Source: an uncultured Anaerolineales bacterium (GTDB lineage: Bacteria; Chloroflexota; Anaerolineae; Anaerolineales; UBA4823). From it: a stretch of DNA of 61,378 nt. Positions within the stretch are counted from its first letter, which is position 1; every line of letters begins with the position of its first letter. Below the pieces are notes generated by a model. The model did no database searches. It worked only from the letters and a program-made list of their open reading frames with translations, and was not told the origin of the DNA. The stretch lies in contig CALBUI010000075.1 in the NCBI GenBank assembly GCA_937968125.1, forward strand, positions 1 to 61,378, read 5' to 3'. Positions 1 through 29,412 of the stretch are shown here, piece by piece. The translations under genes and the position numbers were made by a program.

Positions 1-176
1 GTCACGATCCGTCGTTCAGATGGTAGTCCAGGTCCTGCTTCCCCATCACCAGCAGTTAGCCTGGCCAATGATTCCTTCAACGGTTTCAGAGCAGCATCAA
101 CGACATCATCACCCAGGACTGTGCGTTGTTTTTCTAAATCCTCAATCGATTTTTCAAGCTGCTCTCGCTCACCCAT
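1..176 (-). CDS. Partial CDS (N-terminus only, runs off the window): coiled-coil leader of a probable adenylate/guanylate-cyclase-type signalling protein
   Basis: Absent from the ORF track because it leaves the window. Reverse translation from the ATG at 174-176 gives MGEREQLEKSIEDLEKQRTVLGDDVVDAALKPLKESLARLTAGDGEAGPGLPSERRIVT. The terminal ERRxVT resembles the start of class III cyclase domains (ERRxVTVLFxD). Confidence 0.4.
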   Translation of the reverse strand, partial: MGEREQLEKSIEDLEKQRTVLGDDVVDAALKPLKESLARLTAGDGEAGPGLPSERRIV

Positions 177-257: not shown

Positions 258-1838
258 TTATTCTTCTATGGTCACATAGCTGTTGACCAGTTCTTGGGCC
301 ACTGAAGATACTTCCAACCAGAATCGTTTGTTCTCCGGATCGCCTGGAACAAAAAGGTTATCGTACTTAACCCGGTCATCGCCCCTTGGAATCCGCTCAA
401 CTGCCCGGACCGCAAATTCGTGCAGCTGCCTGGCGTTAGAAAGCCTCTCGTTGAGAGCTACATAGTACAGCCCTAGTTTTTCAACGAAATTGATCTCGTG
501 TCCTAACTCCTGACCAGCCTGGGCAAACTGGCTCAGCACAATCAAGATGCGATCCCCGAAACTCATTGGTGGGATGATGAATTGATTTTCAGCCGGCACC
601 CGGCTGAGCAGGTCTTGACCTTTCGGCCGGATAGCCATGCGCTCCTTCATTCCATCCAGGCTGAAACCAGAACTGCCGGCCATAATGAAGACCAATGGCT
701 CAGATCTGGTTAAAGAAGCATCCAGGTAGGGCAGCAAGACATCATAGGGCCAGGCTTCCTGAGGTTTGGCGTCAATTTCGTCAATCAAACATAAAATGGG
801 CGTAGCGGATTCTGCAATAGTGGACAGCGAAGATTCAAATTCTTCCTGCTGGGTTTTGGCGAGGTTGATCTCGTGATATTCGTTTTGCTCTACTTGTGCT
901 GCAGCAATCTGCTGGGCAAAGAATGTTTTCCCGCTGCCAGGAGCAGCCCATATCATGTAATTCTTTCTTGATGAAGATTGATCCGCCAGGGATGAAAGTA
1001 TGCTTTGTTTGGCATCTTTCAAGTCATTGAGCACATGCTCTTCGTAGCGCGTATAATCACCAACGATGGAATAGCGGGGGAGCTTGACAATATCCATCTC
1101 TGCTATCAGCGGATACTGCCAGAAGGGGCTTTGTTTGCCGAAATGCCTCAGAGAGGATTGGTATTCCTCAAAATACTCATCCTTATGAGCCAGGTAATCC
1201 GGCTCTAGTCGCTTACGAAAAAGTGGACCACCGAAGACTTGCGCCCAATCGGAAACCGGCATGATGTAATCTTCTGCCATACGGTAGTAGAGCGACCATC
1301 GTTTGACGTGTTCTTCCGACCGGAAGATATTCATGCGACTTCAATTGAACGCCCCCGTTCCCTCCCGCCACTTCGCGAATGGCGACATTAAATAGGCGAT
1401 CGATGTGGGCGGATCGATCGCCAGTATCTCTTCATCTCGCATACGAACGGAGATAGGTTTTCCACAATCCAAACACATTGTTTCGATGTGAATTTCTTTT
1501 CCTGGGAAGAGCCAGCGCACGGCCAGCACTTCCATACCTCACTGGCCAAACCACTTTTGTTCACCGTCTATGGTAATTTTCAAATGGGTGGGAACATTAG
1601 AGAACGGCGCCCAAGACTCAATATAGTCCGTATCATGGGAGAGCCAGCAGCTGGCGATCGGCGCCGCAGCCGCGGTGTCTCGGATCAGGACCCTGGATTC
1701 GTCTATCTCAATATCGAGGGTATGAGCCAGTTCCACATAATGAGGCGCTCTTCCATGCTCAATAAAATGTTCTAACACACTCGTATATGCCTTCTGAATA
1801 AGTGTATCTTCGCTCATTTTCAAACCATCCTCAGGCAT
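258..1838 (-). CDS. MerB-like (alkylmercury lyase family) domain fused to a C-terminal AAA+ ATPase; candidate selenoprotein with two in-frame UGA codons (1539-1541 and 1341-1343), 526 aa if both are decoded
   Basis: Track ORFs 1539..1838, 1341..1535 and 258..1334 share one frame. They are separated only by TGA-GGT-ATG and TGA-AGT-CGC-ATG. WFGQ-[TGA]-GMEVLAV matches MerB YAW-C96-ALD99-TLIF. MCLDCGKP matches SSH-C117-AATGAP. AFN-[TGA]-SRMNIFRSEEHVKRW matches SF-C159-CHVHFFASVPTAEDW. The C-terminal part has Walker A AAPGSGKT and Walker B LCLIDEID. SECIS-like hairpins follow both TGAs. Confidence 0.6.
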
Positions 1839-1996
1839 CCTGGGATCTTTCCTGAATTATACAATTAAGGTCAACAATAATCAAATTTGTCCTTTGTATT
1901 TGCCTTCCCGACCGTAGTTCCAATTGAGACTAGAATTCTATAAGGTTTGTTTATGCACATTAATACTAAGTGCTCGAGGCTGTACCCTACACCTTG

Positions 1997-2422
1997 CTAC
2001 ACACCGATAACTCTCCTGAGAACTACGATTGCTCCCAGAAGAGCTCCCCAAACCGCATAGCCCACCAGCAGCAACGGTACCAGCTTCAAGCCAGCCCTGG
2101 ATGCAAACCAGGCTGCGAACAGAAACCCGATCGAAGGTATGATGCCCAATAACAAGCTGCTGCTGAATACCTTCATCGTCTCCTGGTCGCCGCTGTTTGC
2201 AGAGTAAACGATCCAAATCGCCAGCGTCGCGCCGATCGGCATCGTGGCGGTAATCGCCGCAGCAAACTTGCTCTGCTTCTCCAGAACTGCGACGAGAATG
2301 ATCACCACTATCGATAGTAGAACTGGGAGTACATCCTGTGTCTTCAATGAGCCCTCCTGATTATGTTCAGAAAATGCACCTTGATGGATTGCGAAGAAAA
2401 TCCTATGAGGATTCAAGAACAT
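1997..2422 (-). CDS. Small integral membrane protein, function unknown (true start probably internal to the listed ORF)
   Basis: Hydrophobic segments VLPVLLSIVVIILVAVL, MPIGATLAIWIVY, LLLGIIPSIGFLFAAWF and LVPLLLVGYAVWGALLGAIVVL. The 5' end overlaps the preceding gene by 20 nt. Confidence 0.5.
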   Translation of the reverse strand: MFLNPHRIFFAIHQGAFSEHNQEGSLKTQDVLPVLLSIVVIILVAVLEKQSKFAAAITATMPIGATLAIWIVYSANSGDQETMKVFSSSLLLGIIPSIGFLFAAWFASRAGLKLVPLLLVGYAVWGALLGAIVVLRRVIGV

Positions 2423-2852
2423 TCTTAAGACGCCGCATATTATTACTGAGAGTGCCCATGTAAATCCGCCTGACTATGAACTTGGGGACAAGACCCCAAA
2501 AATCACCCAGATTGGGCTTGAATAAAAAGGTCACCTTGGTGTCCCCGGATGTCCGCTCCCAAAGTGTCCCCCCTGCGGCCTGCACCGCAGCATTGGGGGT
2601 GCTGACATACATCACCTTTATCATCGGGTCGTAAACTGTGACTTCATACTCGTTGGTAAACGAGCGCCCCATGTAGCGATTATCGTACTTGCGGATGGTT
2701 CCCACCCCGTTTTGCTTCGGATCCGGAGACTGCTCCCAGCCCAGTAGATAGGGCTGCCACTCATGTTCCCGTTCTATATCATCCATGTAAGTGAAAACTT
2801 CTTCCCGCGGCTTGTTGATGACGATACTGTCTTCCAGATCCAGGACAAACAT
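2403..2852 (-). CDS. SRPBCC (START/polyketide-cyclase-like) family protein
   Basis: About 150 aa. The N-terminal pattern SIVINKPREEVFTYMDDIEREHEWQP is typical of the SRPBCC fold family. Confidence 0.6.
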   Translation of the reverse strand: MFVLDLEDSIVINKPREEVFTYMDDIEREHEWQPYLLGWEQSPDPKQNGVGTIRKYDNRYMGRSFTNEYEVTVYDPMIKVMYVSTPNAAVQAAGGTLWERTSGDTKVTFLFKPNLGDFWGLVPKFIVRRIYMGTLSNNMRRLKNVLESS

Positions 2853-2881
2853 TGCAGAAACTCCTTCTTGTCCAAACCAAG

Positions 2882-3598
2882 CTATGAGGAAGGGCTATAT
2901 CCCTGGCGCGCCTCAACCGGGGCGCGGGAAATCACCAGCCACACAACAACCAGGCCCACTACGATTCCCAACAAGGTGAGGTACAGCGTTTGGTTGAGCG
3001 CAAATCCAACCCCAAACCCAGTGGCGACACAGGCTGTCATCCAGCCCGCAGCCTGCAGACGGGGTCGCCTCCAGATTTCAAATTCAGTCATATGTGCTTC
3101 AGAACCAGGCAATCGCTCAGCACGGCGACTGGCGACCAGAAAGCCGATCAAAAGGGCGGGACGGACCAGATTAGCAAAATTCTGCACTGTGTTCCCGGGA
3201 GCCAGATTCCCCGTTGCGGCGATGTCCATCAAGTGTACGATGGTCGCTCCAACGCCGAACACCGTCACTGCGATGACCGTCGCCTCCCGAAAGCCATCCC
3301 TGCGCCCAGCCGCGATGAGGCCCAATATCCCTAGCATGAGGTTGGCGAATGCCACCTCCAGCTGGAAAGGGTTCCCGGCAGGCCAACCGATGAATTCGGC
3401 CACAATATCGGAGATGAAGAAGTGGCTGATAAATCCCGCGATCCCACTGCCGGCAACCCCCAACGAAAATATATAAATTAAGAACAGTTCCAGCCTGCGC
3501 TCCCGTGTGTTGGTCGACTTATCCAAAACAATTTGTGCTCCGGCCACCAAAAGCGGCAGGATTGAATAGATGAAGATACGGATAATTGCAAGGATCAT
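2882..3598 (-). CDS. Integral membrane protein, function unknown
   Basis: 238-aa ORF with about 6-7 hydrophobic helices and no recognisable catalytic motif. Confidence 0.55.
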   Translation of the reverse strand: MILAIIRIFIYSILPLLVAGAQIVLDKSTNTRERRLELFLIYIFSLGVAGSGIAGFISHFFISDIVAEFIGWPAGNPFQLEVAFANLMLGILGLIAAGRRDGFREATVIAVTVFGVGATIVHLMDIAATGNLAPGNTVQNFANLVRPALLIGFLVASRRAERLPGSEAHMTEFEIWRRPRLQAAGWMTACVATGFGVGFALNQTLYLTLLGIVVGLVVVWLVISRAPVEARQGYSPSS

Positions 3599-3693
3599 AC
3601 TATGTTTGTCCTCTGCGGCTCAAGCTTGAGATCATAAAAATTGATAGATTCCATACATTATATATCCAAAATATCGCTTACCTTCGGTTTGGC

Positions 3694-3921
3694 CTGGAAT
3701 TGGCTGAGAACATTTGGGAGATGCTCGCTGATTGGAATGGAGATTATCTACCAGAAGATCAGGTCAATCCTACCGGTCCTGGCACCGGTGGCAGGAAAGT
3801 AGCTCGCGGGGGATCGTGGCATGCCAGCCCGGACCATGTGCGCAGCGCACTACGCACCCACCTTGGCATTGACCAGCAGTTCAACCATGCTGGCTTCTGC
3901 TGCGTAAAATCAATCCCTTAA
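3694..3921 (+). pseudogene. C-terminal remnant of a formylglycine-generating-enzyme/SUMF1-type (FGE-sulfatase) domain
   Basis: AENIWEMLADWNGDY...NPTGPGTGGRKVARGGSWHASPDHVRSALR...HAGFCCV matches the conserved C-terminal about 75 aa of FGE-sulfatase domains (NVWEW..DWY...NP.GP..G..RV.RGGSW....R.A.R.....GFR). There is no room upstream for the rest of the roughly 250-aa domain. Confidence 0.55.
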
Positions 3922-3973
3922 TTGAAGTATTCTGGATAGTTAATAAATTCGCCCCCAACTTGATGATCTTTCC

Positions 3974-4402
3974 TTAACCGGCTCCTCCAGGCAGCGGGCT
4001 GATGATCAGGATATTTGTACCAAAAGGATCTGCTACCGGGCAGAAGCGGATAGGTTCGTACATCAGCTGGTCGCTGGGCGGCTCACCCACTCCTCCCGCC
4101 TCGATAAACGCCGCTTGCAGCCGGTCAGCCTCTTGTGGAGTCTGCATGATGATGTTCATCTCCACATTCTTTGGGTTTCCGGTTTTTCCTTTAAGCAGTG
4201 TCAACCAGGTGTTCCCAAGTCGCCAGCCGCGAGTACCCTGTCCTTCGACATAGCCTGGAGGACCCAAAACCCGGGTGTAATAATCAACTGCGGCTTCATA
4301 ATCTCTGAAATAGAGGGTCGTTCCGTGCAGCCCGCGGAACTCGAACAAGGATTCTGGGGCAGGATCTGCGAAAAATTTTTGGCGATAACTTTCGTAATCC
4401 AT
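3974..4402 (-). CDS. VOC (glyoxalase/bleomycin-resistance/dioxygenase) family protein
   Basis: Beta-alpha-beta-beta-beta module pattern (LHGTTLYFRDYEAAVDYYTRVLG ... PVADPFGTNILII). I chose the start at the ATG at 4402 because AAAGGAGAG lies about 8 nt upstream. Confidence 0.6.
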   Translation of the reverse strand: MDYESYRQKFFADPAPESLFEFRGLHGTTLYFRDYEAAVDYYTRVLGPPGYVEGQGTRGWRLGNTWLTLLKGKTGNPKNVEMNIIMQTPQEADRLQAAFIEAGGVGEPPSDQLMYEPIRFCPVADPFGTNILIISPLPGGAG

Positions 4403-4485
4403 CAAATGGCTCTCCTTTGTTTCATGCCGGTTGATTGTTGAACTGCCAGCCGACAAAAACCAAATTATCGGTACCCCTCAGGTGA

Positions 4486-5220
4486 TTATTCTTTCTCCAT
4501 ATTCTCACTAACCAGAGCCAGGTAGCCTGGCTCATCCCGGATGTTGTCCAAATCCGAATCCGACTTAGACCACTCAATCATGTCTGGACTAAGTGGAAAA
4601 GCCTCTTCTAATTTCTTAATCGCCACCTCTTTATCCCCGATCAATGAGTAGTAGCAGGCCAGGTTGTATAGCGCGCGTCCACGCCAAACTGATTGCTCAT
4701 CCAAATCAATCAAGGTGGCAGTTATTTCCTCCATCAGCTGGTTGCCGCTTTCCTTATCCCCGTGGTGGCTGAAATAAAAGGCGATATGCCCTTGTGGGTG
4801 AAAATACCCGTTATGCACAGTTCGCCTCCACAACGAGAGTCCTTTCATCCAACCATATCGCTGGCCGTCCAGAAGATCATCTTCAGATATTGAATGTACA
4901 TCTTCGACGAGTTCTGAATAGGCACGCACATGGAAATCAATTATTTCCCGCCAAGTTTTTTCCCTATAGCGGTGAAAAATCTCGTCATTTACGGCATCCA
5001 CATCTTCGTAGTTTGCTGGCTCCTCTCCTGACTTGAAGGAGCGAATCCTTTCGCTCGAGATTGATTTCCAGGCGGCTATGTGCACGATTTCATCTTTTAC
5101 TGCCCAGTCCTGCGCGGTCCCTTCTATGGACCTTTCTTCCTCGCTGAGACTGGCTACGAAGGTCAATTCATTGTGGTGTGATTTTTCTAGTAAATCCAGG
5201 AGCTGTTTTTTCTTTTCCAC
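4486..5220 (-). CDS. DinB/ClbS-like four-helix-bundle protein with a TPR-like C-terminal tail
   Basis: The N-terminal 150 aa have the helical-bundle pattern with spaced His residues (VHIAAW ... FHVRAY ... HNGYFHPQGH). The C-terminus ALYNLACYYSLIGDKEVAIKKLEEA is TPR-like. Confidence 0.45.
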   Translation of the reverse strand: MEKKKQLLDLLEKSHHNELTFVASLSEEERSIEGTAQDWAVKDEIVHIAAWKSISSERIRSFKSGEEPANYEDVDAVNDEIFHRYREKTWREIIDFHVRAYSELVEDVHSISEDDLLDGQRYGWMKGLSLWRRTVHNGYFHPQGHIAFYFSHHGDKESGNQLMEEITATLIDLDEQSVWRGRALYNLACYYSLIGDKEVAIKKLEEAFPLSPDMIEWSKSDSDLDNIRDEPGYLALVSENMEKE

Positions 5221-5406
5221 CGCTTTTCCTCCACTTGGTTCTTTACCATCATATGCGTGGCTTATATTTCGATAGAATTAGTCGCAATTGTGAGAATACC
5301 TGAAAACAGTTCTCAAGTCAATGGGATATCGCTCTTGCCGCAGTCCTCAATAGCAATGCCTGCGACAAACGCAATCAAGTGATAGCGAATAAAGCAGTAG
5401 AACTTT

Positions 5407-6120
5407 TCAAATTACCCTTTTAGCCAAAGGTAGGACGTCCACCAAATTCGGCGTGATCAACGTCTCACCGCCCTTTTTGAACAACATACGGCAGTGGTCG
5501 CAGCCCATGCCGATCGTTTCGCTGGCATCCAGACCTATCCCCAGGTAGTGGCTGTAGGTGACATCGCCAAAATTGCAGTATGGAGCCAATTCCATTACCC
5601 CCATCGCATCGTAGAACTTTATCACCGCACATTCGGAAAATTCAAAACCTGCGTCAAATTTATCTCCATCACCCTCTAATAGTACATACACCCAGTCTTC
5701 GGGATATTGTCGTTCCTGGGAGATATCTGCCTGCTTTCCAAATGCCTTCATCGTCCGCTGGCTCACGAGCATCCGTCCCCCCAGCCGGGCTACCGGGCCG
5801 GGTATTTTACGGAAGAGGTCATCAGCCACCTCCGCCCAAATGCTCATCACATCCTTAGCTGTTTTGCCGGTTTCCTTCATCGCCCTGAACATCGCAATAA
5901 TGAAGCCATTCACCACAATAATCGGTGTGTAGTAGTTCTTCATCCCACCCACATAGGGCATTTGCGGGATGATCTCGATAAAATTTTGGCGGGATTCAGA
6001 TACGATGCTCCTCGCGTATTCTGCCCCATAATAACTCAACAATTTCCTCCTGATCGGGCGGAAGGTGAGGTCAAAAAGCTTCAACAAACGATTTTGTCTG
6101 GAGAGATAATAATCTTCCAT
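5407..6120 (-). CDS. L-2-amino-thiazoline-4-carboxylic acid hydrolase-like family protein
   Basis: About 237 aa with the C-terminal Cys pattern FSECAV...APYCNFGD...GMGCDHCRMLF. I recall this pattern from the family; the assignment is tentative. Confidence 0.4.
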   Translation of the reverse strand: MEDYYLSRQNRLLKLFDLTFRPIRRKLLSYYGAEYARSIVSESRQNFIEIIPQMPYVGGMKNYYTPIIVVNGFIIAMFRAMKETGKTAKDVMSIWAEVADDLFRKIPGPVARLGGRMLVSQRTMKAFGKQADISQERQYPEDWVYVLLEGDGDKFDAGFEFSECAVIKFYDAMGVMELAPYCNFGDVTYSHYLGIGLDASETIGMGCDHCRMLFKKGGETLITPNLVDVLPLAKRVI

Positions 6121-6183
6121 TTTTTCTAACCCTCAACTTTCCTTTTGGTATCCCTATCTGGTCAACCCAAATCCACAATCGCA

Positions 6184-7050
6184 TCAACTGGCGAGGACAG
6201 CCTTGATTTCCTCGGAGCGCTGGTCAATTTCCCGCGCGGTCTCACTCAACATGTCATCATAAATATTGCCAGCACCTATCAGCATCCCCTCTGCCTCTGC
6301 CAGGGCTGCGTAAATCAACCGCAGCAACCGTTGTGATTCGCTTGGTACAAGTCCCAGTTGGTGAAGCGTCTTTTCGACTTGGATTGTATGCTGCCTCATG
6401 TGCGACTCGAAGCGGTGCATGCGAAAGCGCAATACCATCGGTTCATCTTCCCAATACTTGGCCGGCAGATCCAATTCAGAGGATTCAACACTGGCAATAT
6501 CGGTTAATACCCTCTCATGTAGATCGCAATGGAAGGATTCTAGTCCGGCTATTGGTCCAGTAATCATATCGTCAATCTCACTATCGCTCATCCCGGCAAT
6601 ACCCAACCAGGTATCATCATCAATTTCAACCAGTTGATCCAATCCCTGGCGGTATCGATCCAGTGAAAACTTGATCACCACATAGAAGCCCAAATCAGCT
6701 CCCACGATATGGGCGATAATCCTGCGCAGGGGCCACTCCCCTTCAGCCGGTGGTTTTTCCTCGTATTCACTACCCACTCCCAAAAGGACAGATTGCAGGT
6801 CATTGTATGCCGCGTGGTATTGAGCCAGGATCCTCTGGGCTTCTGACAGCGGCGTTCCCGCAGCGACGCGCGCCTGGTTGAGTTTCACCGCCAGCTCGCG
6901 CAGCTGCTCAAGGGTGCGGAAGTAGGCAAAGCGGACACCTTCGGATTCATAGGAACCCCAGACCCATTCTCTCTCCAGATCAGAGTCTGTGATCCCTTGG
7001 ACGAGTTCAGCAAAGCGGTAAACTGATTTGGATACGGAATTGTCAAGCAA
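6184..7050 (-). CDS. DinB family protein
   Basis: Helical-bundle His motifs (IIAHIVGADLGF ... MHRFESHMRQHTIQVEKTL) typical of the DinB/YfiT-like metal-binding bundle. Confidence 0.55.
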   Translation of the reverse strand: MLDNSVSKSVYRFAELVQGITDSDLEREWVWGSYESEGVRFAYFRTLEQLRELAVKLNQARVAAGTPLSEAQRILAQYHAAYNDLQSVLLGVGSEYEEKPPAEGEWPLRRIIAHIVGADLGFYVVIKFSLDRYRQGLDQLVEIDDDTWLGIAGMSDSEIDDMITGPIAGLESFHCDLHERVLTDIASVESSELDLPAKYWEDEPMVLRFRMHRFESHMRQHTIQVEKTLHQLGLVPSESQRLLRLIYAALAEAEGMLIGAGNIYDDMLSETAREIDQRSEEIKAVLAS

Positions 7051-7106
7051 AAGTTCACCTCCAACAGGTACCAGTAAATTAAATCTCTATTCTTTCCCCG
7101 ATCTTA

Positions 7107-7898
7107 TCACGCTGAAGATAAATTCTTCTCGAAGCTGTAAATGTCATGCGAACTGAAGACATTCACTTCGTCACCATGTTCTTGAATCAATTGGCGTAGT
7201 TTTGGAACATGCGGTCCGCAGAACCTGTGGGACAATCCTCCAGGTAAAAAGTTCAATGACTGCTGCGCCTCAGGATATCCGTGAATATCCACTTCTTTGT
7301 GGAATGGAGAGGCAGCATCACCACAGTTGAAAATCCACCCCTGATCGCTGGCAACTGCTACTCCGCAGTGACCACGCGTGTGACCCGGGAGAGGTATCAG
7401 GTGCATCTGCGGTGAAATCCCCTCCAGGATATCAATGCGCGGGAAACCCAACCACTTACCATCTACCTGGTCGTAGAATACCCACTTTGGATCATGCGTC
7501 CAATGAGCAGAATCGCAGCCTCGTTCAAGCAGAGTACGCGGCTGGGTAGCTGAATCGAGTTCACCTTTGAAAAGGTGGACATTTGCCTGGGAAAAATCAC
7601 GCAATCCACCGGCATGGTCCAGGTGCAAATGGGTGAGTACAATATGCTTCAAGTCTTGCGGGTCATAACCCAATGATTTCACCTGATAAACCGCCGTCTC
7701 TTCGACCTTGCGCGGGACTCCCATCAGCCGCATAAACCCATCCATCATCGGCGAGGGTTTTTTATAATCCTGGAGACCGAACCCGGTATCGACCAGCACC
7801 GGTCCATCATCCGTCTCTACCAACAAACAGTAGACAATACTGCGCAAGCGGGGGTATTTTGGGGATAATGTCCCGCAGTTCAAATGATGTATCTTCAC
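7107..7898 (-). CDS. MBL-fold metallo-hydrolase
   Basis: Canonical HxHxDH motif in LTHLHLDHAGG, plus downstream PGHTRGH and a conserved Asp/His. Confidence 0.8.
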   Translation of the reverse strand: MKIHHLNCGTLSPKYPRLRSIVYCLLVETDDGPVLVDTGFGLQDYKKPSPMMDGFMRLMGVPRKVEETAVYQVKSLGYDPQDLKHIVLTHLHLDHAGGLRDFSQANVHLFKGELDSATQPRTLLERGCDSAHWTHDPKWVFYDQVDGKWLGFPRIDILEGISPQMHLIPLPGHTRGHCGVAVASDQGWIFNCGDAASPFHKEVDIHGYPEAQQSLNFLPGGLSHRFCGPHVPKLRQLIQEHGDEVNVFSSHDIYSFEKNLSSA

Positions 7899-7954
7899 TT
7901 TTTTGTCGCCTCTTTAAGGTCGCAACTTTGATTGATCAGAGATAAGGCAATTCA

Positions 7955-8392
7955 CTAAGGACCTGGATTAGCCCCACGCTGGGATATTCCAAACAGGTTG
8001 CCATCCGGATCATACAATGCGGCCAGTATAGCCCCCCAGGGCTTTTTCGTTGGCGGGTATTCCACTCTCGCCTCCAGCTCCTTAAACCTTGCAAAGGTGG
8101 CCTCGACCTCCTCCACCTCAAACCAGAGAGAAACCTCTCCAGAAGGAGCAGGCACATCCTCAACCAGGTCAAAACCGAACAATCCACATATCTCTTCTTT
8201 TTGAATAACCGCGATAAATGCGTAGCCCTCCGGGGGTTGGCTGGCCTTGAAGTCCTCAGCAATTTCCTCCCGTGACTCCCCGAAGTAGCTGATCTTGTGC
8301 TCCGGAATCTTGTTTAATCGCATGATGAAATGGATTCCCTGCTCAAGATTTGAATCTCCAGGCGGGAAAATCTTCAGATCAGGTCTCTTCAT
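7955..8392 (-). CDS. VOC-like domain protein (C-terminal half); N-terminal half unassigned
   Basis: The C-terminal VSLWFEVEEVEATFARFKELEARVEYPPTKKPWGAILAALYDPDGNLFGI is a typical VOC module. Confidence 0.4.
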   Translation of the reverse strand: MKRPDLKIFPPGDSNLEQGIHFIMRLNKIPEHKISYFGESREEIAEDFKASQPPEGYAFIAVIQKEEICGLFGFDLVEDVPAPSGEVSLWFEVEEVEATFARFKELEARVEYPPTKKPWGAILAALYDPDGNLFGISQRGANPGP

Positions 8393-8425
8393 GCTGTTTG
8401 ATTTTGGAAATTTTGTGTTTTAAGT

Positions 8426-9208
8426 TTAGCGGACAATATTCAGCATCAAACCTAACTCATCGCTGATCAGGCGCACTTGCTGGATTGTCTCCTCCGGTGG
8501 GAAGATCAATGTTTCGTCTCCTCCGGCGCCCTCTACGCGAGTCCCTTCCAGCCAGAAGACCTCCTGCGAATCAGGCAAGTTATCCAGGACTGATTTTAAA
8601 TCCTGAACACCACTGACTGTTATTTTAACCCACCCATCCGGAGTAATAAAACTGTCTGGCGAGAGGATCTCGTCAGAAGTCTTGCTGCGGTTTGTGCCGC
8701 TGATTAAAGTGAAATGCCACCTATCTTCTTCGAGCCAGGAATATAACTCGTACCCCTTCTCTGAGGCTGGAAATTCCTCTTCCCATTCTAAGACCTCAAA
8801 AGCCCCCTCCTTGATTATCTCAATCTCAATCTGCGAACCACCCTCTGCTGAGATGGTGTGTGTGCCAGGCATTAAATCCACCGGCACTTTCAATTTTGCC
8901 TCACAGTGGTTTACCATGCAGCTCAGCGACCCAACCGGTTCATTGCTTATGTGAACCGCGAAAAGTCTCTGCGATTCGTTGTAGAAATTTCCGCACTCAA
9001 TTTGGTATCCCCCGCTAGCGATGATTATTATCTCGCCACCTGCTAATATCTGCTCAGGCTGGACGGCTTGCAGCTCGGGCCAGATGATCTCCGCCTCCGT
9101 TGGGGAACACTCACTCGGTTGAGGTGTAGGCAAAGGTGGAGGTTGTTGGCATCCCACGATGAAGAGGGCACCCGCCAGCACCGAGAAAATGGTTTTGAAA
9201 CGCATCAC
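8426..9208 (-). CDS. Secreted lipoprotein, function unknown
   Basis: Signal peptide with lipobox MMRFKTIFSVLAGALFIVGC, followed by a Pro-rich linker. The start overlaps the stop of the upstream gene (ATGA). Confidence 0.6.
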   Translation of the reverse strand: MMRFKTIFSVLAGALFIVGCQQPPPLPTPQPSECSPTEAEIIWPELQAVQPEQILAGGEIIIIASGGYQIECGNFYNESQRLFAVHISNEPVGSLSCMVNHCEAKLKVPVDLMPGTHTISAEGGSQIEIEIIKEGAFEVLEWEEEFPASEKGYELYSWLEEDRWHFTLISGTNRSKTSDEILSPDSFITPDGWVKITVSGVQDLKSVLDNLPDSQEVFWLEGTRVEGAGGDETLIFPPEETIQQVRLISDELGLMLNIVR

Positions 9209-9822
9209 AGCCTGGTGTAGTAGAGCGCCTCCAGGAAAAGCCCATGATCTTTACTGGTCTTATCCTCGAAATACAGCTCTTTGAGCGGGCCGCCAAAGCG
9301 GATATGCATCCCATCCAGCCGTTTTGTCCCCCTGGTGGTGGCGATCACCGTCCTGGAAGTACCCAAATCCGGCGAGTCATAAACTTCATACACGTCAAAC
9401 TGGTCAAATATCGGTACCAGAACGATCACCGGGACGACCAGAACAATGAACCCGGTGAATTGAGTTTTGTCCTCAACGAAGGCTGGGTACCCCGAGACGA
9501 TCGCCATTTCTCCGGCGCTGCCCTGAGATTCAACTATTGAAGGGCTGTAACTGACCGGTTTTTGAGCAAGGTACTTTTCCAGCAGGTCTGGTGAGAGGCT
9601 GGACACAATCTCGTCCCTCTGGTCGGACGGCAAATCCTTCAACCCCATCTCAAAGTGTAAGAATGCTTTTGCGCCGGTCGAATAAACGCCTGCTGCTCTC
9701 GCCAGTTCGGAGTGGTCGATGACCTCGTCACCTGATCTGGCAAACATATTGTAGAAGCGACCGCCATTATCAAGGGCACGTCGCGCCCCAAGTAGTGTTT
9801 TGTATGGCTGCAGTTCGCGCAT
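9205..9822 (-). CDS. Hypothetical protein
   Basis: 205-aa ORF, translationally coupled to the lipoprotein gene. No motif recognised. Confidence 0.45.
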   Translation of the reverse strand: MRELQPYKTLLGARRALDNGGRFYNMFARSGDEVIDHSELARAAGVYSTGAKAFLHFEMGLKDLPSDQRDEIVSSLSPDLLEKYLAQKPVSYSPSIVESQGSAGEMAIVSGYPAFVEDKTQFTGFIVLVVPVIVLVPIFDQFDVYEVYDSPDLGTSRTVIATTRGTKRLDGMHIRFGGPLKELYFEDKTSKDHGLFLEALYYTRL

Positions 9823-9958
9823 GCTCTACCTCGGTTCCAGATATTTCTTGATTAAATAATATACCCCCAAGAATTAACCGCGGTTCATGGTTGCCTCAGA
9901 CTGTAGTGATTTAGCCTTTGCTTCAAGTAATTCTCTAGATGCAATAAAACAGGGAAGA

Positions 9959-11044
9959 TTATCCTGGTGCTGATTCCTCCTCCTCAGCATCCTCTTCAGC
10001 TTCAGTTTTGGGTTCTTTGGAGCTCATCAAGCGCGCGATCCAGTGGTTCTGGTCATCTGCCTCCAGGACTAATTCTTTGAACATTAATGTCATCGGTAAT
10101 CCCAGGATCGCCCCTACAGGACCCAGAACAGCCGCCCAGAAAATGACCGAAAAAATTACCATGAACGGTGAGAGATTTAATCCTTCACCCATATACTTCG
10201 GTTTGACTACGTTTTCTGCAAACCCGTTGATCAGCACGATGCCCAGAAAAACGAGCAAGGCATTCACCGGCCCATTTTCAAGCAGGGCAAGCAATGAGGG
10301 TGGGATGGCTGCTAACCAGAAACCAAGCGTGGGGATGTAGCTCATCAGAAAAGCCAGGATACCCCACAGGACTGGAAAACTCACTCCCATAATTATGAAC
10401 CAGATAATATCTAAAACACCGGTTGTCAGGCCCACAATGGTGGTGATGATGATGTACTTGCGCAGCGACTCGCTGACCTGAAAATACCGCTGCAGGTAGG
10501 CGTTGCCAGACTTGATCTCCTCAGCCAGTTTTTCGGGTGCGTTGAAGGCATCCAATAACAAAAAGATGACCAGCAAACCGAGTAAGAGCAGGTTGCTTAC
10601 CGTTCCGAACAAGCCAGATATAAAACTCCCCAGCGCGCTCAGCAGCTGTTCCGGGTTAATGTAAGAAAATATCGAATCAGAGTCTGGTGTGATCAAACCC
10701 TGCGCGCTCAACGTCTCTTGAAAATCAGAGATCGTAGTTTCAATCTCCCCCGCATACTGGGGGATTTCTTCAATAAAGCGGTCCATCGCCACCACCAAAA
10801 CCAGTGTGAAGGCGGCAAACACTGCCAGGATAGCTATCAGGGTCAATGCAAATGAGAGCCAAACCGGGGCGCCTTTGTTGACTAGCCAGTGGAGCAGTGG
10901 GCTGGCAACAAGTACGATGATCCAGGCCAGGAACAAGGAGCTGATCAATTCGGCCCCTTCGCGCATGAACATCAGGGCGAGCCCTGCCGCAGCAATGGAG
11001 ATCAATACCCGCATGGTGAAAGATAGCGATGAATTATTCTGCAT
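9959..11044 (-). CDS. AI-2E family transporter (PerM/UPF0118)
   Basis: About 8 TM helices and the family C-terminal pattern ENVVKPKYMGEGLNLSPFMVIFSVIFWAAVLGPVGAILGLPMT. Confidence 0.8.
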   Translation of the reverse strand: MQNNSSLSFTMRVLISIAAAGLALMFMREGAELISSLFLAWIIVLVASPLLHWLVNKGAPVWLSFALTLIAILAVFAAFTLVLVVAMDRFIEEIPQYAGEIETTISDFQETLSAQGLITPDSDSIFSYINPEQLLSALGSFISGLFGTVSNLLLLGLLVIFLLLDAFNAPEKLAEEIKSGNAYLQRYFQVSESLRKYIIITTIVGLTTGVLDIIWFIIMGVSFPVLWGILAFLMSYIPTLGFWLAAIPPSLLALLENGPVNALLVFLGIVLINGFAENVVKPKYMGEGLNLSPFMVIFSVIFWAAVLGPVGAILGLPMTLMFKELVLEADDQNHWIARLMSSKEPKTEAEEDAEEEESAPG

Positions 11045-11153
11045 TTTGCATTCCCTTAATAGCTGAGCCCGGGAGAATCGAGTGAGATGATCTCTACCAG
11101 GTCTTAATTGATTACCGAATTATAATCCCGGGTTTCATCCCGGATGGATCTGT

Positions 11154-12182
11154 TTAATTCTCCAGGCTTTCGCTGTGTGCTTTCAGAACCCGTAAAGCGC
11201 GCAGCGTGACCCATTTATTAGGTTTTCTCACCTCCCCAAAATCCAACCAGGTCTTTCCGGTGTAGTGATATTCCAGCGACCATCTGCCTTGATCATCCTT
11301 CTTATCGCGAATGATCTCTATGGCATTGGCTAAGCGTGGATCACCACCATATCCCAAAGCCACCAGGGTTTCCACATTCTGCAGTAGATCGGTTATATAA
11401 AAGACCGGGAAACCAAATTTCCACCAGTTGCGGCTGGGTTTATCCGTCCAGCCAGTGGGGTAATCTGCTTCTGCCGGATCCACGCTGAAGAGAAAATCAA
11501 CTCCATGCTGGATAGCCCGCTCAATCAAGGGGGTACGTTTCTCTGCGGGCAGTTGACTGAACGCCAGCATTACCTTGACCCCTCCCCAGGCGCAGGGCAG
11601 CTTATTGTTCGACCCGCAGGCAAAGGTCGGCCCACATTGGCTGGCATAAAACCGCAAGGGGGCTTTGGGCTCGGTATTAGGCGCTAGCCCATCCCCGGTG
11701 ACAGTGCGCGCCATCCATTCAAAAGCCTTCTCTAATCCAGGATCTTCGTATCCCAATTCCAGGAACGCCCAGCACATGTTGCCTTGTAAGCAATCAGCAG
11801 TTCCGGAAGGTGCCCCAGAGGCAGTAAACTGACCTCCTGCTGCAAGTCCGTGCTCGAACAGGTAAGCACAGGCACGCTCAATACGTGCATCAACTTCTGG
11901 TGAAGCGCCCAGCTGTGCCAACAGAATCAGCGACCAGACTGAGGAACGATATTTCGGGTTGTAGCCGGGTCCCGGCCTGGCCCAAAAACCATCCTCCTCC
12001 ATCTCAGCTAGGATCCCAGCAATGGGGCCATCTTTATGGGCTGCCTCCCGGGCTGCCTGAAATTCGGCATCCTCTGGATTGCTGTCCAACAAATCACGCA
12101 TCGCCAGGAAGCGCACTCCGGGATCATCTGGCTCTAATAACCAGGGCAGCGTGTCCGCTTTTAGCCGATCTTGCCAATTCAT
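11154..12182 (-). CDS. Prenyltransferase/squalene-oxidase-repeat-like (alpha/alpha-toroid) protein
   Basis: The N-terminal LPWLLEPDDPGVRFLAMRDLL and repeated aromatic/Gly-rich segments resemble terpenoid-cyclase-fold proteins. Tentative. Confidence 0.4.
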   Translation of the reverse strand: MNWQDRLKADTLPWLLEPDDPGVRFLAMRDLLDSNPEDAEFQAAREAAHKDGPIAGILAEMEEDGFWARPGPGYNPKYRSSVWSLILLAQLGASPEVDARIERACAYLFEHGLAAGGQFTASGAPSGTADCLQGNMCWAFLELGYEDPGLEKAFEWMARTVTGDGLAPNTEPKAPLRFYASQCGPTFACGSNNKLPCAWGGVKVMLAFSQLPAEKRTPLIERAIQHGVDFLFSVDPAEADYPTGWTDKPSRNWWKFGFPVFYITDLLQNVETLVALGYGGDPRLANAIEIIRDKKDDQGRWSLEYHYTGKTWLDFGEVRKPNKWVTLRALRVLKAHSESLEN

Positions 12183-12742
12183 GTTTTCCTTCCCTTCCCG
12201 ATCTTAAAAGTCCAAACACAACCGCCTTCTTCCCAACTCACCTCCGCAGGAACAATGCCCATCTTCGTCGAGGGATGCTCCGGATGGGTGAGATGCATCT
12301 TTTCCACTTCGCATATCTCCCTACCTTCAAAATCAAGGTCGCATTTTTCAGCGATCTCATTTTGTTTCTCCAATCGCAGGCAGTTTTTGAACCGGACGGT
12401 CATCTCGCCGTTCTCCACCTCAGATACTTCATATTCTCCTGGCCGATGCATCATTTGATCCGAGTACAATACCGCGTAGATGGCTTGCTTTAATACCATA
12501 TTCGGCGTTAGCTTCGTAGCTGCTTTTCCCATCACTTCCGCAATTGGACCCATGAATCTACCCATCATTTTGCCATACGCTTCAACAGTATCATCAACCC
12601 AATCCTGGACAGTCCCCAACCTCTTGTGCGTCTTATAGCTGATGGCGTGGTCCAGGGTGAAGAAATCGTGCACCCGGTCCCATTTCTCTTCAATGGGCAT
12701 CTCCTTTAGTTGTGGTTCGATCGGTGTTTCTAGATCAGCCAT
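12179..12742 (-). CDS. Hypothetical protein
   Basis: 187-aa ORF; its stop overlaps the next start (ATGA). It is Cys-containing in the C-terminal part (CLRLEK..CDLDFEGREIC..GGCVWTF). Confidence 0.45.
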   Translation of the reverse strand: MADLETPIEPQLKEMPIEEKWDRVHDFFTLDHAISYKTHKRLGTVQDWVDDTVEAYGKMMGRFMGPIAEVMGKAATKLTPNMVLKQAIYAVLYSDQMMHRPGEYEVSEVENGEMTVRFKNCLRLEKQNEIAEKCDLDFEGREICEVEKMHLTHPEHPSTKMGIVPAEVSWEEGGCVWTFKIGKGRKT

Positions 12743-12797
12743 CTATTACCTCCAATCTACGGGTGAAAAAATAACACAATTCCATTTATTCACCGTC

Positions 12798-13502
12798 TCA
12801 GCTGAGCAATGCCTTCCAATCCAATCCCCCGAGGTTGTTGATCACCTGGTCAACTCCATCTATCTGCTTGTGCTCGACATTCTCCCCAGAGCTTACCGCC
12901 ACAACGTATCCTATTCCGGCCGACCGCGCAGATTGAATCCCGGACAGCGAATCTTCCACCACAATGCAGGCGGCTGGCTGCAGCAACAATCTTTTTGCCG
13001 CCTGCAAATAAACCTCAGGCGCAGGTTTCCCTGGATTGCTACCATCATCATAAACGATTTCACGGGGATCAAACCACCGGTCGAGCAGCAGCTGCTCTCG
13101 AAAAAAATCGATGTTTTCTTTTCCTGAGGCAGTGGCTATCGTGCGGGGTATCTCGTATGCTGCCAGCTGATTCAATAAAATTTCAGCTCCTGGAGACAAC
13201 TTGAATTCATCCCCCAGAGCCAGACAAAGATCGCGGTAGTAGCTCTCCTTTTGCTCGCTGAGCTGCCTCACTTCGTTCTTATCTAGTTCTCTCTTCGAAA
13301 GGAACTCCAAAGTATGGCGATTGTTGCGCCCGTGAACCTCGGTTTCCAGCAACTCATCGGTAAGCGAAATCCCAAACTGCTGCTTAGCAAACCGTCGCCA
13401 GGCCTGCTCCTGAAGCACGCGATCCCACCATAAGACACCATTGAAATCAAAAATGATGCCAGAATATTTCCTCCCGATTCTCAACCCGGAATTGATTTTC
13501 AA
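12798..13502 (-). CDS. HAD-superfamily hydrolase (subfamily IA, beta-phosphoglucomutase-like)
   Basis: Motif I as IIFDFNGVL (DxN variant of DxD) and motif III/IV as VVEDSLSGIQSARSAGIG. Confidence 0.75.
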   Translation of the reverse strand: MKINSGLRIGRKYSGIIFDFNGVLWWDRVLQEQAWRRFAKQQFGISLTDELLETEVHGRNNRHTLEFLSKRELDKNEVRQLSEQKESYYRDLCLALGDEFKLSPGAEILLNQLAAYEIPRTIATASGKENIDFFREQLLLDRWFDPREIVYDDGSNPGKPAPEVYLQAAKRLLLQPAACIVVEDSLSGIQSARSAGIGYVVAVSSGENVEHKQIDGVDQVINNLGGLDWKALLS

Positions 13503-13505
13503 TCT

Positions 13506-14141
13506 CTAGTCAAGTTCCTTAATCACCCGGCAGGGATTCCCGGCCGCGAACACGCCCTCCGGGATATCTTTCGTCAATACGCTGCCCGCACCGATGACGC
13601 TCTGCGAACCAATCGTCACCCCGGGGCTGATCACTGCACTGCCGCCGATCCACACATCTGATCCGATCTCGATCGATTTGGCGAACTCCAGCCCCGTCCT
13701 GCGTTCAAGGTAAGCGGTTGGATGGGTCGCGGTGTAGATCTGGACGTTGGGGCCAAAAAGGGTATTACTCCCGATTACCACCGGGGCCGGATCTAAAATG
13801 ACACAGTTAAAATTAAAGAAGACGTAATCGCCCAAGGTGATATTAGAACCATAATCACAATAAAATGGTGGTTCGATCCAGGTTCCCTCCCCAATGGATC
13901 CGAATAATTGGCTGATGATCGCAGCTCTGCGTTCTTGCTCCTCATCCCAGGAATCATTCAGCTCTTTGAGCAGATTCCGTGCCCGGCGTCTCTCGGATGA
14001 AAGATCTGGGTCCAGGGCATTGTACATCTCTCCAGCCAACATCTTTTGTTTTTCCGTTTTCAATGAAAAACCTCCTGCTCGCTTCTGTAGTAATAGCCCG
14101 AAGGACTCGGGTAGAAATCTATTTTCCCACAACAAGCTCAT
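13506..14141 (-). CDS. Sugar O-acetyltransferase (maltose/galactoside acetyltransferase family, hexapeptide repeat)
   Basis: The N-terminal KMLAGEMYNALDPDL..ERRRARNLLKELN and hexapeptide repeats IGSDVWIGGSAVISPGVTIGSQSVIGAGSVL. Confidence 0.8.
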   Translation of the reverse strand: MSLLWENRFLPESFGLLLQKRAGGFSLKTEKQKMLAGEMYNALDPDLSSERRRARNLLKELNDSWDEEQERRAAIISQLFGSIGEGTWIEPPFYCDYGSNITLGDYVFFNFNCVILDPAPVVIGSNTLFGPNVQIYTATHPTAYLERRTGLEFAKSIEIGSDVWIGGSAVISPGVTIGSQSVIGAGSVLTKDIPEGVFAAGNPCRVIKELD

Positions 14142-14590
14142 TTAGCAAATATTTCATTATGGTCTGCTTTAAATTGGTTTTCTCTTTTGATGAATCCATC
14201 CAACAAGAAAAGGGTACCCAACAGAAATAAAGGCCCAGAGATGATCAGATATACCTCCCATCCGTCAGGTTCCCAGAAGAGCACAATATACAAAATGCCT
14301 AGCAGGATGAACAGAACGCCGCCAATCCATTCCCAACGCCAGGCTATCGCCAACGCGAGCAAGAATATCGCAGTAGGGATAAGGTGCATTAATAACGCCC
14401 AGATGGTCTCCCAAAAACTATATCCTTCCATGAAAACATCCAACGCAAACAAGCTGATAAAGATGGCGAAAAGAAGGCCCAATACCCTCGGCGTCCAATA
14501 TAGAACTTTCTTGACCGTCTCGTTCACCGGGATTCTCTCCTTTAACCTTTCAGGTGGCCTGACCCAATTACTGGTTTGATCTGCGCTCAA
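14138..14590 (-). CDS. Integral membrane protein, function unknown
   Basis: 150-aa ORF with 4 hydrophobic helices, coupled by ATGA to the acetyltransferase gene. Confidence 0.5.
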   Translation of the reverse strand: MSADQTSNWVRPPERLKERIPVNETVKKVLYWTPRVLGLLFAIFISLFALDVFMEGYSFWETIWALLMHLIPTAIFLLALAIAWRWEWIGGVLFILLGILYIVLFWEPDGWEVYLIISGPLFLLGTLFLLDGFIKRENQFKADHNEIFAK

Positions 14591-14644
14591 GACAGTGAAT
14601 TCATATCGATAAAAGCGCTCACAGCATCAAATTCAGCGTACCTT

Positions 14645-15283
14645 TTATATTTCTTGGAGATGCACGCTCTTGATCCAGCCTTGTGGAAATTGTTTCTCGG
14701 GATTGGTCAACAGTGCTATTGCCTTGGCAGTCCTCGATCTGATCGCCACACTGGGATCATTTTGCAGCTGCGAGAGCCGGTTGAGCATGCGCTGGTTTTC
14801 TCCCGGGTATTTACGGCCGATGATGCACAGGCTGGCGATCGCCCAGCTTTTAGTAAATACACTTTCATCTTCGAGCAAGGTGTAAAGGACTGAAATCAGT
14901 TGCTCAATAGAATCCTCGAAAACCGCCAGGTGTCCAAATATCATCGCCAGGTGCATCTTTACCGCCGGCACCTTTTCCGTCTCAGCCAGATCGATCATCT
15001 GCTGGAGGTGCCTGATCAGCAAATCAGGTCTTTCCCGGGCAACTTTTTCGAGTGCATCTGCCGTCCGCGCGCGTATGACCTTATCCGATTCACTCAAACC
15101 GGCTAACAGGTCGCCAAATATTTTGGGGTTCTCCAGCACCACCTGGGCAGCTTCGTTTGCCATCCCGTCAGAGCGCACATCACCGCCAGAAAGCCAGGTC
15201 AGGATTTGATTCGTTTCGTTTGCAGTTATTTTCTTCTCCTCCGCATGAGCACCCACAGTAGGAAGAACGTCGCCGCAGGCCAC
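14645..15283 (-). CDS. HEAT/ARM-repeat protein (DNA-alkylation-repair-like fold)
   Basis: Repeated helical units with VRARTADALEKV.. and VAIRSRTAKAIALL. The 5' end overlaps the upstream gene by 58 nt, so the true start is uncertain. Confidence 0.45.
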   Translation of the reverse strand: MACGDVLPTVGAHAEEKKITANETNQILTWLSGGDVRSDGMANEAAQVVLENPKIFGDLLAGLSESDKVIRARTADALEKVARERPDLLIRHLQQMIDLAETEKVPAVKMHLAMIFGHLAVFEDSIEQLISVLYTLLEDESVFTKSWAIASLCIIGRKYPGENQRMLNRLSQLQNDPSVAIRSRTAKAIALLTNPEKQFPQGWIKSVHLQEI

Positions 15284-15819
15284 ACCCAGGCCAGTTCTCC
15301 AGGCCCTCCCGGACCGGTCAAGGCTTTTGGTCGCTGGATGCGGATCAGGCGGTAGCTTTCCAATAGCTCAAGCAAATCCTGATCGGATAGATTTTTTTGA
15401 TTGGCACCAAACAAGGGGCCCGCAAAACCGCTGGCGCGGAGCACCTGCCGGATAATTTTGGTATTCCCCTCCATTTCGGATACATCCTCGGCGATCCCAG
15501 CCCACCGGCCATCCGGCAGCCATACCTCCACCTCTGGATTGGCCATGATGTTCAGGTACCAATCAGATACCCTGCCAAATCCAGCAGTACAGTAGATTTC
15601 TCCATCAACGATGGCGTAGTTCAACGGCGTGTGACGCGTGAGTCCCGTCTTACGACCGGTGTGCTTGATGACCAAATAAGAGCCGCCAAAGGAGGTCCCG
15701 TTGCCCCACGAACCCAAACCCAGGCGCCAGAGCAGCAGCATAAAGCGGTTAAAGGATTTGAAAATGCTCCGGAGGCTATCTTCCGAGACTTTCATCCCGG
15801 CTATTTGATATTCATACAT
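15226..15819 (-). CDS. Nitroreductase-family deazaflavin (F420)-dependent oxidoreductase-like protein
   Basis: The core LVIKHTGRKTGLTRHTPLNYAIVDGEIYCTAGFGRVSDWYLNIMANPEVEV matches the DUF385/Ddn-like split-barrel family. Confidence 0.6.
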   Translation of the reverse strand: MYEYQIAGMKVSEDSLRSIFKSFNRFMLLLWRLGLGSWGNGTSFGGSYLVIKHTGRKTGLTRHTPLNYAIVDGEIYCTAGFGRVSDWYLNIMANPEVEVWLPDGRWAGIAEDVSEMEGNTKIIRQVLRASGFAGPLFGANQKNLSDQDLLELLESYRLIRIQRPKALTGPGGPGELAWVWPAATFFLLWVLMRRRRK

Positions 15820-29409: not shown

Positions 29410-29412
29410 CAA

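Follow-up and report, generated by a model that had tools for sequence, protein, structure and literature searches.

Organization of the Locus

At one end of the window (the whole 61,378-nucleotide stretch of DNA analysed here, contig CALBUI010000075.1 of an uncultured Anaerolineales bacterium), three minus-strand open reading frames (ORFs) at 1539..1838, 1341..1535 and 258..1334 lie in the same frame and are separated by two TGA codons only. The first TGA (1541-1539) is followed by GGT-ATG and the second (1343-1341) by AGT-CGC-ATG. We propose that 1817(1838)..258 is a single gene for a selenoprotein of about 519 amino acids with two selenocysteines (Sec), a MerB-like domain and an AAA+ ATPase module, and give this reading a probability of roughly 0.85. 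Its features, including two hairpins that resemble the selenocysteine insertion sequence (SECIS), are listed below.

258..1838, minus strand: proposed recoded coding sequence of 519 codons if it starts at ATG 1817 (the more probable case) or 526 if at ATG 1838
1653..1817, minus strand: predicted N-terminal three-helix, winged-helix-like subdomain, from the secondary structure of the model of homolog P0155, with weak Foldseek matches to winged helix-turn-helix regulators
1239..1604, minus strand: predicted MerB-fold core with Sec/Glu103/Sec and a CLDC motif (Pfam PF03243, E = 1.9e-17)
1539..1541, minus strand: UGA codon 1, inferred Sec100 (Sec93 from the 1817 start), in the MerB Cys96 column
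1505..1533, minus strand: SECIS-like hairpin 1, GGAAG.GCUGGC-CGUGC-GCUGGC.CUUCC, 5+6 bp, loop CGUGC at 1521-1517, 17 nt from UGA to loop
1341..1343, minus strand: UGA codon 2, inferred Sec166 (Sec159 from the 1817 start), in the MerB Cys159 column, which is the Sec column of SaoL
1312..1327, minus strand: SECIS-like hairpin 2, UCUUCC-GGUC-GGAAGA, 6 bp (7 in most relatives), loop GGUC at 1321-1318, 19 nt from UGA to loop
261..1091, minus strand: AAA+ ATPase module at the C-terminus, with GSGKT (Walker A, 938-924) and (LCLI)DE (Walker B, 782-777)

The initial annotation had described the three ORFs as one frame broken by two TGAs, and the sequence confirms this. The 526-residue product that it gave corresponds to the frame from ATG 1838, which ends at TAA 260-258; since the relatives L001 and L002 carry stops upstream and begin with MSE..., ATG 1817 is the likely start and the product would have 519 residues, with Sec93 and Sec159. 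Gene callers break the coding sequence into pieces of 99/92-97, 64 and 358 aa, and the relatives L085, L086 and L087 are split in three in the same way. As also stated at the outset, TGA is an ordinary terminator in the window, where it closes 14 of the 37 stop-to-stop segments of at least 250 codons, and a genome-wide reassignment of UGA was rejected on this ground. A scan of the window for in-frame TGAs gave no convincing candidate for another selenoprotein gene.

The MerB-like Domain

The read-through product, with both TGAs taken as Cys, served as the query in the profile and alignment searches. Residues 79-200 match Pfam MerB (PF03243) with 63.9 bits against a cut-off of 27, and relatives with other domain architectures score 66-74 bits. 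HMMER alignment to the MerB/MerB2 chains 3f2g, 1s6l and 5c17 places the first TGA on Cys96, the second on Cys159, Glu103 on Asp99 and Cys122 on Cys117, in agreement with the assignment of both TGAs to the catalytic cysteines, of the Glu to Asp99 and of the retained Cys117 made in the initial annotation. In MerB, Cys96 and Cys159 bind mercury, and Asp99 is the proton donor (Haft & Gwadz, 10.1101/2022.07.06.499078). The Glu in the Asp99 column is invariant in both family alignments (A1 and A5).

The fold was modelled on P0155, a homolog with Cys at both sites that is 40% identical to the window module, with an alignment of 54 sequences. The model has a predicted local distance difference test score (pLDDT) of 93.4 and a predicted template modelling score of 0.89. 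A Foldseek search of the PDB with it gave 11 significant matches, all of them MerB or MerB2 (E from 1.6e-10 to 2e-7), with the next match at E = 0.15. Judged from this model, the module has the MerB fold. It falls below the NCBIfam equivalog thresholds for MerB proper: the window protein reaches 23 and 26 bits against cut-offs of 200 (NF033555) and 193 (NF009710), and scores over the family range from 23 to 41 bits against the same 193-200. The Cys96/Asp99/Cys159 triad of MerB proper is not present, the aligned residues being Sec/Glu/Sec.

A CLDC(G) motif at window positions 1464-1475 (minus strand), Cys122-Leu-Asp-Cys125, is near-invariant in the family, and its Cys125 has no counterpart in MerB. 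As a pair of accessory thiols, Cys122 and Cys125 may pass metal on or take part in redox chemistry.

The AAA+ ATPase Module

By sequence and model, the C-terminal 358 residues form an AAA+ ATPase whose Walker motifs are intact. Residues 295-395 match Pfam AAA (PF00004) with 27.5 bits (cut-off 21.2), and GSGKT (Walker A) and (LCLI)DE (Walker B) show no variation across 49 sequences. An AlphaFold2 model of the 358-residue window ORF (pLDDT 87.7) resembles spastin, RuvB, p97, Vps4 (these four with E of about 1e-7), Lon and ClpX in Foldseek, at about 15% identity. A sequence search of the PDB with the AAA+ part gave E = 0.26 as its best value, and no specific AAA+ subfamily could be assigned from sequence or from the Foldseek matches.

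Codons at the Two Sites in Related Loci

The search with the read-through product returned more than 100 clusters of about 358 aa (54-95% identity) from metagenome-assembled genomes of Chloroflexota, Anaerolineales and Actinomycetota. All of these clusters begin with MN[IL]FRSEEHV, directly after site 2. One protein, P0018, begins just past site 1 and has Cys at site 2. A metagenome scan with patterns that left out both sites reported more than 563 relatives. By these sequence matches the family appears widespread, with more than 563 metagenomic loci and members in Chloroflexota, Actinomycetota and Desulfobacterota.

The codon census covered 84 loci, namely the 80 closest of the more than 563 metagenome loci and four genome loci, which are 45-88% identical. 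The codons at site 1/site 2 are TGA/TGA in 78 loci, TGC/TGA in four (L003, L023, L030 and L033) and TGC/TGC in one, with one aberrant locus. Counted by site, TGA stands at site 1 in 78 loci and TGC in five; site 2 has TGA in 82 and TGC in L004. None of the 84 loci carries TAA or TAG at either site or a further stop between the sites. Among the genome loci, L001 and L002 are TGA/TGA, L003 (Desulfomonilia) is Cys/TGA and L004 (Miltoncostaeaceae) is Cys/Cys. Complete chromosomes with a double-TGA ortholog include CP070764.1 (Chloroflexota bin26) and CP070639.1 (Anaerolineales). Other Cys/Cys homologs are P0155 (checked on the DNA in L089), P0158 and P0215. Furthermore, 44 protein clusters have Cys at site 1 and a C-terminus exactly at site 2. 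The comparison of homologs proposed in the initial annotation thus shows relatives that align as a single protein and have Cys in one TGA column or in both.

A decaying pseudogene, in which two nonsense mutations struck a former MerB-AAA gene, would agree with the annotation of the locus everywhere as separate small ORFs, of which GenBank calls only the last 358 aa, as an 'AAA family ATPase', and with the existence of one lineage (L064, L090/P0129) that is truly without both sites. However, both TGAs recur in 78 of the 84 loci, at 45-88% identity and with no other stop or frameshift. The ratio of non-synonymous to synonymous substitution rates (dN/dS) relative to L001 is 0.076 for the N-terminal, 0.037 for the middle and 0.05 for the C-terminal piece (0.04-0.08 per segment), with saturated dS of more than 1.2, and the stop is always TGA. 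Because dN/dS is low in all three pieces at such dS, the comparison indicates that each is protein-coding and constrained, which excludes decay; near-clonal copies are ruled out by the same dS, and we give the pseudogene next to no probability. The opening argument that two chance nonsense hits would be implausible is borne out by the recurrence of both codons, which goes far past what chance would give, and close as well as distant relatives keep them free of frameshifts and extra stops.

In the small lineage of L090:661-1377 (P0129, P0130) and L064, single-base changes have turned both Sec codons into codons for residues other than Cys: site 1 reads TCA (Ser), and site 2 reads TGG (Trp) or GTA (Val). 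Neither the open frame nor the two hairpins have been lost, and in L064 a further TGA lies one codon 5' of site 1. This lineage could be a non-catalytic derivative or a case of early decay.

The locus might also yield three polypeptides, a split MerB and an ATPase, if translation terminated at each UGA and re-initiated at the ATG two to three codons on. Such an ATG lies downstream of each TGA in the window, it explains where the gene callers start their ORFs, and the Met after site 2 is invariant. Yet the second codon past site 1 encodes Met in only 32 of 78 loci, the remainder having Leu, Ile, Phe or Val (CTC, ATC, TTT and similar), which are not start codons. The Met after site 2 is present in the all-Cys homologs and in SaoL as well, hence its conservation is structural. 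The approximately 160 stops are all TGA, whereas coupled stops would drift among TAA, TAG and TGA, and homologs with TGC at these columns are one continuous protein. In addition, the MerB fold would be severed at both ligand positions, so that three chains would have to reassemble. Taken as a whole, these data make termination and re-initiation very improbable.

SECIS-like Hairpins

Hairpin 1 folds with -15.7 kcal/mol (z = -2.5). Hairpin 2 has -7.3 kcal/mol alone (z = -2.8) and -11.7 kcal/mol over 48 nt, within an extended structure at about 1298-1339. The two loops, CGUGC and GGUC, have an NGU motif in common. The bacterial SECIS (bSECIS) model calls for a loop of 3-9 nt with G in its first two positions, an upper stem of no fewer than 4 bp, a distance of 16-37 nt from the UGA and a minimum free energy of -7.5 kcal/mol or lower (PMC13188914). 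Both hairpins agree with the model in every one of these respects (PMC13188914), so that the SECIS check suggested in the initial annotation returned a hairpin of this type 3' of each TGA.

Both structures are strongly conserved. Paired positions make up 92.6% of cells for hairpin 1 (69 sequences) and 94.8% for hairpin 2, as compared to 29-58% in slid controls. The normalised entropy of synonymous codons over 78 distinct loci is 0.44 at hairpin 1 and 0.30 at hairpin 2 vs. 0.81 +/- 0.16 elsewhere, and the twelve six-codon windows of lowest entropy all lie just 3' of the two TGAs (Mann-Whitney p = 1e-5). Over hairpin 2 several codons are practically fixed: CTC (Leu) in 73/73, TTC (Phe) in 78/78, CGG (Arg) in 76/78 and TCG (Ser) in 78/78 sequences. 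Both hairpins are gone in the Cys/Cys locus L004. In L023 and L030, which have Cys at site 1, hairpin 1 is degraded by synonymous changes and hairpin 2 is intact.

These data bear on whether UGA is read here as an amino acid other than Sec, such as Trp or Cys inserted by a near-cognate or suppressor tRNA, or through a reassignment like that of genetic code 4. Pipelines of the Joint Genome Institute (JGI) did give Trp at both sites in many members (P0121-P0128 and others), and Sec machinery was not seen in the sequence at hand. The 'W' residues are, however, TGA in the DNA (L088) and arise from a fallback to code 4 on short contigs; TGA closes long ORFs in the window, and the family covers several phyla that use the standard code. 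The two sites fall on catalytic Cys columns and exchange only with Cys in functional-looking homologs, and at both of them a hairpin of SECIS geometry lies under synonymous constraint. We therefore regard a non-Sec reading of the UGAs as improbable.

The Trp assignments are frequent in databases. At both sites 34 full-length proteins of about 235 aa have 'W', and in L088:39-746 (P0123) these residues are TGA. Such 'W/W' gene calls, mostly from JGI, include P0121-P0128, P0137, P0152, P0161 and many of P0195-P0223; they are evidently short contigs translated under code 4, which hides selenoprotein candidates. Every database copy examined (GenBank, IMG) is mis-annotated, being either split into three ORFs or given with the UGAs as Trp. 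With a profile for the family, annotations could be corrected by the hundred, and selenoproteome catalogues would gain a two-Sec family.

Proposed Selenocysteine Insertion

We suggest that the intragenic stem-loop of each UGA acts as its own SECIS and recruits SelB with Sec-tRNA(Sec). The ribosome would then put in Sec at both UGAs instead of terminating and produce one protein, in which the MerB-type site becomes Sec/Glu/Sec, a diselenolate site whose two selenium atoms would bind a soft metal or metalloid. The double-selenocysteine candidate put forward in the initial annotation gains support from the conserved TGAs, from the interchange of Sec and Cys at both columns and from the constrained hairpins.

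Several observations weigh against this proposal. The bSECIS criteria are permissive and are passed by 14% of the 2295 TGA trinucleotides in the window; because of this, the main weight for putative SECIS function is placed on conservation and synonymous-site constraint, which does not depend on the protein sequence and is the stronger evidence, rather than on the fit to the model. A stricter rule (stem of at least 6 bp, a loop of 4-5 nt with [N]GU, spacing of 16-20 nt), which was set post hoc, is passed by 3 of the 2295 TGAs; two of them are UGA sites 1 and 2, and the third, at 13125 on the plus strand, is antisense to a HAD hydrolase gene. The near-invariant stems give only weak covariation: compensatory changes are confined to pair 13-33 of hairpin 1, which is itself unpaired in 19 of 69 sequences. 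The hairpins persist in the Cys/Cys locus L089 and in the Ser/Trp locus L090. A hairpin persists also in L003 and L033 despite the change from Sec to Cys at site 1. Persisting hairpins may reflect either recent conversions with a relic SECIS, which we favour, or conservation of the RNA that is partly of other cause. The 80 metagenome loci of the census, being the closest relatives, are phylogenetically non-independent.

The genetic context has to be counted on the same side. Genes for SelA, SelB and SelD and for tRNA-Sec were found neither in the 61-kb window nor in the flanks of 51 loci, and the competence of the host for Sec insertion is taken from its phylum. Chloroflexota and Actinobacteria are documented Sec users (PMC5389517, PMC13326102). 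Nor were any mer genes of the mercury resistance operon (merR, merT/P, merA) present in the window or in L085-L087, L089 and L090. Pfam searches of 47 long window ORFs gave no sel and no mer genes, and Rfam at gathering thresholds had no match in the window. ARAGORN detected no tRNA in the window and no tRNA-Sec in the flanks of the 51 loci, a result that is uninformative because the tRNA-Sec of Chloroflexi and Actinobacteria is of the atypical 8/4 type.

Relation to Known Proteins

The initial annotation knew of no Sec-containing enzyme of the MerB family. One has in fact been described: SaoL is a MerB-like organometallic lyase selenoprotein with a single Sec at the Cys159 equivalent (Haft & Gwadz, 10.1101/2022.07.06.499078; J Bacteriol 2023). 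It shares the MerB fold with the window family, its Sec aligns exactly with site 2, and a downstream MN(F/L)F motif is common to both. SaoL entries in databases routinely end at the UGA, and SaoL also lies outside the classical mer operon. On the other hand, SaoL is only 23% identical to the window protein, and with the SaoL model (NF040728) the window protein reaches 39.7 bits and all architectures 34-47 bits against a cut-off of 140. SaoL has a CU dipeptide and a Cys at the Cys96 position, whereas the window family has AFN-U and a second Sec there. Furthermore, SaoL is encoded in a nine-gene SAO neighbourhood (SaoA/B/P/T/X/C/E and others) of strict anaerobes, mostly Firmicutes, which is absent around the window gene and its relatives, and no fusion of SaoL to an AAA+ or cyclase domain has been reported.

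MerB (R831b; 3F0P, 3F2F, 1S6L) and MerB2 (5C17) have in common with the window family the Pfam family, the fold and the three active-site columns, with Cys117 corresponding to Cys122. They differ in having Cys/Asp/Cys in place of Sec/Glu/Sec, at about 17-20% identity, and the window family is not found in a merA/R/T/P context. The family has in addition a C-terminal helical extension, and the window protein also carries the AAA+ ATPase. The LipJ-type hydrolase-cyclase and hydrolase-AAA+ proteins (P0116-P0120) have the same output modules behind an enzyme-like N-terminal domain, but this domain is an alpha/beta hydrolase and not a MerB fold with two Sec. The SaoP permease dimer likewise brings two Sec together, for one ligand or a diselenide; in the window family the Sec pair lies in one chain of an enzyme fold, 65 residues apart, each with its own SECIS.

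For the MerB fold, the reviews of 2022 and 2026, the deep-Sep tables and BSepDB list only SaoL and no two-Sec family, with Haft & Tolstoy 2025 outside the comparison. NCBIfam release 20 has no model for such a family. Sec within a MerB fold is already known from SaoL; the novelty lies in a second Sec and in the domain architectures.

Domain Architectures and Possible Function

Of 74 complete loci, 42 encode the module by itself (about 235-240 aa), 24 join it to a class III adenylate/guanylate cyclase domain (PF00211) and eight to the AAA+ module. The cyclase fusion is found in L014, L018, L021, L035 and 20 other loci and in P0182-P0194. In databases, its cyclase portion is entered as a protein of 232 aa in its own right, named 'class 3 adenylate cyclase', which starts right after site 2. 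The fused domain most closely resembles the cyclase of LipJ, a hydrolase-cyclase protein. In P0116-P0120 (550-583 aa), an AAA+ module of about 60% identity stands behind an alpha/beta-hydrolase domain instead of the MerB-like module, which suggests that the N-terminal input domain is exchangeable.

Any specific biochemical role that we assign to the module is tentative and stays short of even odds. We favour binding of an organometal or organometalloid compound, probably followed by MerB-like protonolytic cleavage. According to this scheme, the two selenolates of the module would hold a soft metal or metalloid between them, and the module may break the carbon-metal bond, as in MerB; in the fused forms the occupancy of the site would be coupled to the output of the ATPase or cyclase. 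If the proposal is true, this would be MerB-type chemistry with selenium as both metal ligands, which should greatly alter the pKa, the strength with which mercury and other soft metals or metalloids are bound, and the release of product. It would also point to unrecognised handling or sensing of organometals in abundant sediment and soil bacteria that have no mer operons. The cyclase and AAA+ fusions offer assayable outputs for finding the ligand.

Of the organometal lyase named in the initial annotation, the MerB fold is borne out; lyase activity is suggested by the fold, the mer context is absent, and a serious alternative is that the module is mainly a sensor of a ligand (soft metal, organometal or electrophile) that switches the AAA+ or cyclase output. 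Arguments for the latter come from the fusion of 24 of the 74 complete loci to a class III cyclase and of at least eight to AAA+, from the occurrence of the same AAA+ module behind an alpha/beta hydrolase in P0116-P0120 and the proximity of the fused cyclase to LipJ, and from the next gene on the same strand, which in the window and in L001 specifies a cyclase-STAND-TPR protein. There is no mer operon to take up Hg(II). Hg-Se bonds are very strong and would hinder the release of product, and on such general chemical grounds tight binding is expected. Conversely, the module occurs alone in 42 of the 74 complete loci, as would be the case for an enzyme, the invariant Glu at the proton-donor position suggests retained catalysis, and cyclase genes are so numerous in these phyla that adjacency is weak evidence. 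A sensor in place of a lyase is a possibility that we take seriously but consider somewhat doubtful.

Lyase and sensor or capture functions are inseparable by computation: the Glu favours catalysis, and the fusions, the missing mer operon and the Hg-Se chemistry favour sensing. The more specific idea that the diselenolate site is a sensor of soft metals or organometals (e.g. methylmercury) which drives cyclic AMP synthesis or an AAA+ motor is rather unlikely. Such a sensor would be the first Sec-based sensory input domain and an organometal system outside mer operons and SAO.

Flanking Sequences and Gene Neighbourhood

Two further features lie at the borders of the gene.

1856..1884, minus strand: sigma-70-like promoter match TTGATT-17-TATAAT, a consensus match only, upstream of the first piece
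1..176, minus strand: start of the next same-strand gene, truncated at the edge of the window; the L001 ortholog combines class III cyclase + AAA_16 + TPR

No comparable minus-strand promoter match lies between the three pieces. Within the coding sequence, between the two UGAs, window positions 1395-1422 hold a 10-bp inverted repeat, GGCGATCGAT...ATCGATCGCC, with a terminator-like score on both strands; the synonymous diversity of its codons is normal among relatives, so that it is apparently not conserved. The ortholog of the 1-176 gene, L001:5850-9353, encodes 1167 aa with the class III cyclase, AAA_16 (STAND) and TPR regions. L002, L085 and L086 instead carry a small cyclase gene three genes downstream, in the opposite orientation.

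Neighbourhoods are conserved only among close relatives, and SAO and sel genes were absent from those of the window and of the relatives' loci. The gene order upstream of the locus, at window positions 2400-15300, is common to L085:1-9400 (JGI contig Ga0451568_002977; ortholog 88% identical) and comprises HEAT, Mac/hexapeptide acetyltransferase, HAD hydrolase, DUF1706/DinB, methyltransferase, AI-2E transporter and glyoxalase genes. By this shared order and identity, the window comes from a close relative of the Ga0451568_002977 Anaerolineales-like population.

Elsewhere in the window, a MerR-family helix-turn-helix gene at 30159-30794 is generic and 28 kb distant. A PucC-family MFS protein is encoded at 30858-32162 (minus strand), and a ChlI/BchI-like AAA protein followed by a VWA-domain protein at 38757-40849 (plus strand). 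The rest of the window is housekeeping in character, with ClpC-like (33926-36412), RadA-like (32379-33878), holA (28414-29412) and ribosomal protein S1 (36710-38698) genes and a Liv-type ABC transporter (46076-51144). In L002 (record CP070764.1), a run of N (masked sequence) at about 3400-3500 breaks the gene upstream of the locus and disturbs the ORF calls at that point, but leaves the locus itself unaffected.

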